Source: an uncultured Solirubrobacterales bacterium | Lineage (GTDB): Bacteria; Actinomycetota; Thermoleophilia; Solirubrobacterales; JBBDJG01 | Length of the DNA stretch: 64,000 nt | Reading direction: 5' to 3' | Assembly (NCBI GenBank): GCA_963816975.1 | Contig: CAWFMD010000006.1 | Span: forward strand, 1,595,008-1,659,007 | Shown here: in pieces, positions 42,869-43,563 of the stretch | Numbering within the stretch: the first letter of the stretch is position 1 | Layout of the letters: every line of letters begins with the position of its first letter | Translations under genes and position numbers: made by a program | The notes under the pieces: generated by a model | Told to the model about the DNA's origin: nothing | The model's database searches: none | Seen by the model: only the letters and a program-made list of their open reading frames with translations

Positions 42869-42900
42869 CTCCCGGCAGCACTGTCCATCCGCATCGGATG

Positions 42901-42914
42901 CGAACATACGTTCG
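42901..42914. promoter_or_regulatory. LexA (SOS) box
   Basis: CGAAC-ATAC-GTTCG, a perfect match to the Gram-positive/actinobacterial CGAAC-N4-GTTCG core. It overlaps the GTG at 42914. Confidence 0.75.
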
Positions 42915-43540
42915 TGTACACCCCGAACGAGAAGGGCGCGATCGCTGAGCAGGTGATCGCCGCGGAGGCGACCAAGCTCGGCATCGTCGTCTCGCGCCCG
43001 AACGTCGACGCGAGATATGACCTCATCTTCGACACTGGGAGTTCGCTGTGGCGTGTCCAGTGCAAGTGGGGCGCACTCGACGTGGATGCAGGGGTTATCA
43101 AGGTCAGTCTGACGTCAACGTGGTGCACGCCCACCGGATACACCAGGAGCACCTACGCTGCGGGCGAGGTCGATCTCTTTGCGGTGTACTGCGGCGAGCA
43201 GAACCGTTGTTATCTCCTCCGCGGGGATGGACTCGTGGACCGTCGTGCGATCTGGCTTCGACTATCGGAGCCCCGGAATGGGCAGCGAGCGTGCGTTAAC
43301 CTTGCTTCCGACTTCACTTTTGACGGGGCTGTAGCTCAGTTGGGAGAGCGGGGCGCTGGCAGCGCTCAGGTCAGGGGTTCGAGTCCCCTCAGCTCCACTT
43401 CCCCGGCGCCTCCGGAGGCCGTCGGCGCCAATCAGTTCCGCGACCGCTTCGGCTGGTACATGGAGCGGGCAGCGGCTGGCGAGGTGTTCCTGATCACTCG
43501 CCACGGCAGGGCATTCGCCCGGATCACGGGCCCGAGTTAG
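42914..43540 (+). CDS. PD-(D/E)XK endonuclease (I-Ssp6803I / group I intron-associated family) fused to a C-terminal Phd/YefM-type domain, spanning a tRNA gene in frame
   Basis: KGAIAE (E12), RYDLIFD (D36), RVQCK (Q49/K51), Y...EVDLFAVYC. C-terminal VGANQFRDRFGWYMERAAAGEVFLITRHG is Phd-like. No stop codon across the tRNA. Confidence 0.8.
   Translation: MYTPNEKGAIAEQVIAAEATKLGIVVSRPNVDARYDLIFDTGSSLWRVQCKWGALDVDAGVIKVSLTSTWCTPTGYTRSTYAAGEVDLFAVYCGEQNRCYLLRGDGLVDRRAIWLRLSEPRNGQRACVNLASDFTFDGAVAQLGERGAGSAQVRGSSPLSSTSPAPPEAVGANQFRDRFGWYMERAAAGEVFLITRHGRAFARITGPS
43325..43397 (+). tRNA. tRNA-Ala(GGC)
   Basis: 73-nt cloverleaf: acceptor GGGGCTG/CAGCTCC with G3:U70, D arm GCTC/GAGC, anticodon stem GGGCG/CGCTC with GGC at 43358-43360, T arm AGGGG-TTCGAGT-CCCCT, discriminator A. 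CCA not encoded. Confidence 0.95.
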
Positions 43541-43563
43541 TGCGGATCACGGGCCCGAGTCAG
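43520..43563 (+). repeat. Near-tandem direct repeat (18 bp perfect, 20/21 extended)
   Basis: CGGATCACGGGCCCGAGT at 43520-43537 and 43543-43560, at the convergent ends of the nuclease and HD-GYP genes. Confidence 0.9.

Follow-up and report, generated by a model that had tools for sequence, protein, structure and literature searches.

In the genome of an uncultured Solirubrobacterales bacterium a gene for a PD-(D/E)XK nuclease starts on the last base of a perfect palindrome, CGAACATACGTTCG, and reads in frame into the gene of tRNA-Ala(GGC). The locus raises the question whether this 14-mer is an operator of the SOS repressor LexA, and which purpose a control by DNA damage would serve for a nuclease in this position. 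We analysed it in the assembly G000 (2.95 Mb, 70% G+C, 93% complete). The window, i.e. the whole stretch of DNA under analysis, comprised 64 kb (G000:C6:1595008-1659007); its features are collected in Table 1.

Table 1. Features of the nuclease-tRNA locus in window coordinates.
Feature	Position	Strand	Remarks
PafBC-type '-26' element	42883..42891	+	here GTCCATCCG; lineage consensus TTCCGTCCG
Extended -10 (predicted)	42899..42907	+	TG 42899-42900, C, GAACAT 42902-42907; hexamer in left half of the box
LexA operator (predicted)	42901..42914	.	perfect palindrome CGAAC-N4-GTTCG; at most one mismatch in 57/77 loci
Start codon GTG and predicted transcription start	42914..42916	+	sole in-frame start
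PD-(D/E)XK nuclease domain	42914..43324	+	Pfam PDDEXK_5; no stop before the tRNA
Internal -10 TAACCT, predicted constitutive tRNA promoter	43297..43302	+	28 nt before the tRNA, inside the nuclease CDS
tRNA-Ala(GGC)	43325..43398	+	ARAGORN; read through in frame by the ORF
Phd/YefM-like N-terminal domain	43418..43540	+	in frame with nuclease and tRNA; TAG stop 43538-43540

The palindrome and the SOS genes of the same genome

The sequence-only reading had placed the palindrome at 42901-42914, with its last G being base 1 of a GTG start codon (42914-42916), and both positions were confirmed. With its flanks the 14-mer extends to the 16-mer GCGAACATACGTTCGT (42900-42915); the window letters 42898-42916 are gat-gCGAACATACGTTCGtg, and ccatccgcatcggatgCGAACATACGTTCGtgtac gives a longer stretch around the site. 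The palindrome is the same as in the SOS box TCGAAC-N4-GTTCGA of M. tuberculosis, S. venezuelae and B. subtilis (Cheo box). TCGAAC(N4)GTTCGA is the experimentally defined consensus of mycobacteria (PMC3381160), and Streptomyces has the same LexA box (PMC9380542). A further likeness to the actinobacterial and Gram-positive SOS boxes is the overlap with the -10 region and the start site, which is predicted for the site studied here.

No second 14-mer of this kind had been noticed in the window by that reading, and a motif search of the 64 kb indeed yielded a single CGAAC-N4-GTTCG. Shuffling of the window gave an expectation of 0.13 copies, with one or more present in 13 of 100 shuffles. The whole assembly contains 5 perfect boxes, and 30 palindromes of the same half-site composition were present in 0 to 9 copies each with a mean of 2.4. 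Because the five copies fall into this composition-matched range, we discarded the argument that the perfect palindrome is over-represented. The perfection of the box alone is weak evidence and not beyond chance; the support for an operator thus rests on context and conservation.

As to the context, the remaining four perfect boxes precede lexA, imuB-dnaE2, a gene for an Rv2578c-like radical-SAM protein and a UvrD-like helicase gene. The genome's own lexA, which encodes Peptidase_S24 and LexA_DNA_bind domains, has CGAACATGTGTTCG upstream, and an imuB-like IMS gene followed by dnaE2 carries a box identical to the 14-mer, CGAACATACGTTCG. The boxes at lexA and imuB-dnaE2 bear out the earlier assumption that this lineage uses CGAAC-N4-GTTCG. 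The gene set is in line with the actinobacterial SOS regulon, in that lexA would be auto-regulated and imuB-dnaE2 and the Rv2578c-like radical-SAM gene are included; Rv2578c itself is bound by LexA in M. tuberculosis (PMC3381160). A difference concerns recA, which in this lineage mostly lacks a LexA box, in contrast to recA of mycobacteria and Streptomyces. At imuB a canonical TTGACT is located 18 nt upstream of GAACAT and the ATG is at box position 15. The radical-SAM gene reads CATCCG-N10-GAACAT with a GTG at box position 14, and this is the same design as that of the studied site.

As a motif from the same genome we used a weight matrix trained on 8 other sites with the tested site left out. 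The 14-mer scored 23.7 bits, the third-highest value of about 5.9 million genome positions and the highest among positions outside the training set. Thus the check that had been suggested along with the original claim spoke for the site.

Two further places, on other contigs of the genome, carry promoter signals of interest. At G000:C4:81141-81190 a PafBC-type promoter (see below), TGTCCG-N10-TACCTT, lies between the LexA-like boxes AGAACACGTGTTCT and CGAACCTATGTTCT, and an A-rich leader and an ORF come next. A Pfam scan assigned no family to this ORF; an SOS cell-division inhibitor or a small RNA is conceivable here. At G000:C5:9123-9830 a gene for an HNH endonuclease with an HTH N-terminus lies behind CGAACATACGTTCT, which overlaps TGTCCG-N10-TACGGT, and a tRNA-like 3' end is found on the opposite strand just past the promoter of this gene. 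The gene encodes another predicted damage-controlled nuclease beside a tRNA. A search of the literature retrieved nothing on a LexA, SOS or PafBC regulon in Thermoleophilia and no LexA-controlled PDDEXK_5 or tRNA-linked nuclease; in the LexA-regulon papers PMC9380542 and PMC3381160 no tRNA-fused nuclease gene of the I-Ssp6803I family was found.

Conservation of the box and anatomy of the predicted promoter

A genome search detected homologues of the nuclease gene in 30 of 61 relatives, and 56 loci were added by a related-locus search with a single protein. Removal of near-duplicates left 77 distinct loci from Thermoleophilia, mostly Solirubrobacterales. The box was perfect in 46 of them, had one mismatch in 11, two in 3 and three or more in 17; as the loci are related, these counts are not independent events. 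Conservation upstream of homologues, which the sequence-only reading had named as a check, was therefore evident: in 57 of 77 distinct loci a box with at most one mismatch occupies the same position relative to the start codon. When the loci were anchored on the box, its columns carried 1.1 to 2.7 bits, while spacers and flanks remained at about 0 to 0.3 bits. The columns of an element further upstream were conserved likewise, so that box and element together show 1 to 2.7 bits per column. Judged by this alignment the pattern is a genuine phylogenetic footprint. In the nearest relative, L006, with 85% identity, the box is perfect as it is in this genome. A perfect box is also present at the locus of the cultured Svornostia abyssi J379 (L075), together with a TGTCCG element. 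On the other hand, 20 of 77 loci, intact genes included, have two or more mismatches, and LexA control would thus not be universal.

The paralogues linked to tRNA-Thr, among them the pseudogene copy of this genome (C6:1398706-1399089), had no box, and neither had the PDDEXK_5 genes of other actinobacterial families in the loci sampled. This argues for the box being a specific, selected feature of the clade. An initial assumption of strict synteny with rsfS was dropped, as rsfS was directly upstream in only 21 of 78 loci; other loci have a gene for a coiled-coil protein and a divergent leuS.

The boxes fell into two classes. Class A, to which the box of the window belongs, has the spacer ATAY or ATGT and the promoter consensus TGCGAACAT, or TTCCGTCCGg..c...TGCGAACATatGTTCGt with the upstream element included. 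Here TG-n-GAACAT would be an extended -10, with the hexamer inside the box. The start codon of class A is always at box position 14 to 17, i.e. 7 to 10 nt past the hexamer, and a leaderless mRNA is hence predicted. In class B the spacer is TAGY, which offers TAGYGT as a -10, and the start codon is at box positions 16 to 22 in 10 of 12 loci. Between the end of the upstream element and the box there are 9 nt in class A and 5 nt in class B. With this shift YGTCCG is placed exactly 10 nt before a usable -10, GAACAT or TAGYGT, in both classes. Among the internal lines of evidence, this shift of the element in step with the box class speaks most strongly for the promoter model.

In the window the last base of the box is part of the start codon, and together with its left flank the box contains TG-n-GAACAT; this predicted -10 begins with G instead of T. 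The GTG start is supported by the Pfam profile, position 4 of which aligns with residue 5 of the ORF. No -35 of the TTGACA type was found at the promoter of 42914, and a scan for canonical sigma-70 promoters gave no hit near the site, which fits a promoter without a -35 and proves nothing.

The upstream element resembles that of mycobacterial PafBC promoters, which are described as tGTCgg(N10)tA(N3)T with a '-26 element' in place of the -35 (PMC8635444). It was conserved, with its spacing fixed, in 47 loci of class A and 12 of class B. Neither this element nor the place of the -10 hexamer within the box had been part of the sequence-only reading. The element of the window is a variant: its core CATCCG (42886-42891) ends exactly 10 nt before the -10 hexamer and differs from the consensus CGTCCG, and relatives have CGTCCG or TGTCCG followed by N10. 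In CATCCG-N10-GAACAT both halves deviate from tGTCgg-N10-tA(N3)T, and the element of the window is presumed to be active. Elsewhere in the genome YGTCCG-N10-TANNNT precedes recA, lexA, recJ, priA, a UvrD-like gene and the HNH endonuclease gene, and ruvC and ruvA have a variant of the motif with a -10 beginning with GA. The genome's own recA has the PafBC-type motif and no LexA box. Of 30 relatives, 24 have the same motif upstream of recA, and a LexA box is mostly lacking there; for this order recA was examined at G000:C5:207309 and in the loci L128-L156.

In addition, the genome encodes a fused PafBC-like protein of 714 amino acids with two WYL domains, two WCX domains and HTH_PafC, similar to the naturally fused PafBC that was used for a crystal structure (PMC6789036). 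The system shares several traits with the mycobacterial PafBC promoters (RecA-NDp, sigma adaptation), namely, in its lineage consensus, the bipartite motif with N10 and the GTC core, and further the lack of a -35, the position before recA as well as many other genes of repair, and a PafBC homologue encoded in the genome. It differs from mycobacteria in the consensus, ttCCGTCCG, and in a presumed activator that is one fused polypeptide; in the present promoter the motif is also joined to a predicted LexA operator that contains the -10.

These data suggest the following mode of action. In the undamaged cell a LexA dimer would cover about -13 to +1 and block RNA polymerase. Upon damage, RecA-stimulated self-cleavage of LexA would free the site, and the fused PafBC-like activator, presumably switched on by single-stranded DNA as in mycobacteria, would recruit the housekeeping holoenzyme. 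Transcription would then start at the GTG (42914) and yield a leaderless mRNA of the PDDEXK_5 nuclease. What the data show is the anatomy of the sequence, the use of the motif by SOS genes of the same genome and the conservation of the two elements with their spacing; LexA binding, the transcription start sites, induction and the role of PafBC are inferred. We consider it very probable that the 14-mer is a functional LexA operator within a -35-less, DNA-damage-responsive promoter, and we regard the nuclease gene as a genuine, previously undescribed member of the predicted DNA-damage regulon.

The nuclease, the tRNA gene and the reading frame across both

The ORF 42914-43540 has 208 codons. Its residues 5-136 match PF11645 (PDDEXK_5) with an E-value of 8.6e-29, and a profile of 16 homologues matches the homing endonuclease I-Ssp6803I (PDB 2OST) with an E-value of 1.2e-16. 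The residues E12, D36, Q49 and K51, which form the catalytic E/D/QxK motif, are invariant in the 16 homologues. The genes nadD and rsfS are located upstream, a convergent gene for an HD-domain protein downstream. Among the relatives the nuclease gene is patchily distributed (30 of 61), and pseudogenes and a deletion remnant occur.

I-Ssp6803I resides in the tRNA-fMet intron of Synechocystis and shares homology, the catalytic motif and the association with a tRNA gene. In contrast to I-Ssp6803I the present nuclease is not intron-encoded: its gene lies 5' of a tRNA gene and reads into it, and this tRNA gene is uninterrupted at the locus, with no group I intron in it. Predicted control by DNA damage and an apparently mostly vertical inheritance are further differences. 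In other Actinomycetota (L094-L122) every sampled PDDEXK_5 gene had a tRNA gene at a distance of no more than a few hundred bases. The linked tRNAs of Actinomycetota were Thr-TGT, Arg-TCT, Tyr-GTA, Ala-GGC, Ser-TGA and Pro-GGG, in varying orientation. The linkage of PDDEXK_5 and tRNA genes is family-wide.

The paralogue in the same genome (L003; G000:C6:1398706-1399089, minus strand, outside the window) abuts tRNA-Thr(TGT), and its stop codon is a TAG within the 5' part of the tRNA (GTAGCTCAG). It contains a TAA nonsense codon and is hence a pseudogene; as noted above, it has no LexA box. The same tRNA-Thr-linked arrangement was seen in L030 and L031. At the other end of the ORF in the window, an 18-bp direct repeat, CGGATCACGGGCCCGAGT, is present at 43520-43537 and 43543-43560, 5 bp apart. 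The repeat spans the ends of both the plus-strand ORF and the convergent HD-domain gene, whose C-termini a small duplication may have reshaped.

The tRNA-Ala(GGC) at 43325-43398 is the sole credible copy in the assembly, which is 93% complete. A second ARAGORN prediction of tRNA-Ala(GGC), at C6:728005, is 98 nt long, GC-rich and a false positive. Rfam yielded tRNA-like and sub-threshold matches only in the region, and a terminator between nuclease and tRNA was not found. The sequence-only reading had proposed TAACCT (43297-43302) as an internal -10 that keeps the tRNA expressed. This proposal gained support from the comparison of the loci: a TANNNT is located 16 to 30 nt before the tRNA in all 74 loci with a downstream tRNA, at -28/-29 in 53, at -25/-26 in 13 and at -30, -22, -17 or -16 in the rest. 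It is often made of ATA, CTA or TTA codons, which are rare at 70% G+C. Genomes without the nuclease point to the same predicted promoter. In L123 (G024:C1:~1100975-1101130) the nuclease is deleted, yet its last 13 codons with TAATCT are kept before tRNA-Ala(GGC), and in G033 the tRNA follows directly after rsfS with TAGGAT. Thus tRNA-Ala(GGC) would stay expressed from the internal TAACCT while LexA is bound.

The order in L123 is rsfS, a trace of a CCGTCG element, the nuclease remnant and tRNA-Ala(GGC). In L126 (G021:C104), likewise without the nuclease, a gene for an ArfB-like protein with a GGQ peptidyl-tRNA hydrolase domain is inserted between rsfS and tRNA-Ala(GGC).

A parallel to the internal promoter exists in phage T4, where promoters embedded in endonuclease genes favour retention of these genes (PMC2988022). 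The free-standing endonucleases of T4, such as SegB in the tRNA gene cluster, are comparable in that a free-standing nuclease gene lies beside tRNA genes, and the promoter of an essential neighbouring gene inside the nuclease ORF disfavours deletion (PMC2988022). They are GIY-YIG enzymes of a phage, whereas the nuclease studied here is of the PD-(D/E)XK type and chromosomal. Furthermore, the T4 endonucleases have no LexA control, and homing has been shown for SegB, but not for the nuclease of this locus.

Beyond the tRNA the reading frame continues into a Phd-like segment. The match to PF02604 is below the cut-off (E 1.8e-4), that to TIGR01552 just above it (21.6 versus 20.8 bits). Only the N-terminal part of a Phd/YefM antitoxin is present, and the adjacent gene is the convergent HD-domain gene instead of a toxin gene. 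In the window the segment lacks a start codon of its own and begins with GTC. Its first codon is GTC, ATC, ATT, CTC or GTT in 37 of 38 loci; hence the Phd-like domain, which is in frame where it follows, is without a start of its own. Of 74 loci (L005-L093), 69 have the 5' end of the tRNA in frame 0 of the nuclease, and in 67 the ORF ends past the tRNA. The frame is kept despite tRNA lengths of 73 to 75 nt. By these counts the ORF through the tRNA looks selected rather than accidental.

It is therefore tempting to view the product as a fusion of nuclease, linker and Phd-like domain: a leaderless mRNA gated by LexA and PafBC would be translated through the essential tRNA-Ala(GGC), so that the tRNA gene would be coding only after DNA damage. 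This may well be so, although we lean slightly towards doubt. Maturation by RNase P and RNase Z would compete with translation of such a message and limit a potentially dangerous nuclease.

Possible reasons for a control by DNA damage

Homing, suicide or defence, and repair as the reason for a damage control of the nuclease are all conjecture. One candidate is a domesticated repair nuclease. It is favoured by the location at the same tRNA across class-level divergence, by the invariant catalytic residues and by a divergence that correlates with that of RsfS.

Another reading accepts the operator as real and assumes that it was selected to time a selfish homing endonuclease that targets tRNA genes. 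Homing needs RecA-dependent repair, which would tie expression to the SOS state, and the embedded tRNA promoter would make deletion of the element costly, just as the promoters inside T4 endonuclease genes favour retention (PMC2988022). The protein is clearly homologous to I-Ssp6803I, which targets a tRNA gene, all sampled PDDEXK_5 genes of Actinomycetota adjoin a tRNA gene, and the patchy presence in 30 of 61 relatives, the pseudogenes and the deletion remnant would be expected of such an element. Yet across the divergence of a class (40-59% identity) the nuclease is found beside the same tRNA and its catalytic residues are invariant, and no intron or second allele is visible. A Mantel test of nuclease divergence against that of the adjacent RsfS gave a correlation (r 0.40, 0 of 999 permutations), which fits vertical descent, and a dual control by LexA and PafBC is typical of host repair genes. 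On balance we consider this role rather unlikely.

An operator that mainly gates damage-dependent read-through into tRNA-Ala(GGC) and the Phd-like segment, be it for tRNA supply or a regulatory RNA, with the nuclease being secondary, is very improbable. This tRNA-Ala(GGC) is the only one in the assembly and belongs to the same transcription unit without a terminator in between; against this, it has its own conserved -10 in every locus, nuclease-less genomes keep the tRNA promoter without a LexA box, and purifying selection acts on the catalytic residues of the nuclease. Finally, a chance or fossil palindrome without a present regulatory role in the genome is hardly credible: about 2.4 such palindromes per genome are expected by composition and the upstream element of the window is degenerate, but the box is at a fixed position in 57 of 77 loci with unconserved flanks and is perfect both here and in the nearest relative L006 (85% identity).

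The preferred reading of a LexA operator within a PafBC-type promoter combines elements of known kinds, and its novelty is their attachment to an unusual nuclease-tRNA gene. Thermoleophilia, a class of soil actinobacteria, are abundant and have hardly been cultured. For them the data provide a first sketch of a DNA-damage regulon, predicted from sequence, with the actinobacterial LexA box, a PafBC-type element at recA and several genes that carry both signals. To this regulon they add a conserved homing-endonuclease-like nuclease, either as a domesticated selfish nuclease or as a case of SOS-timed selfishness. The predicted promoter that the tRNA has of its own in the coding sequence of the nuclease would explain how an essential tRNA can be located inside a repressed transcription unit, and the predicted control by DNA damage defines when the ORF that spans the tRNA would be expressed.
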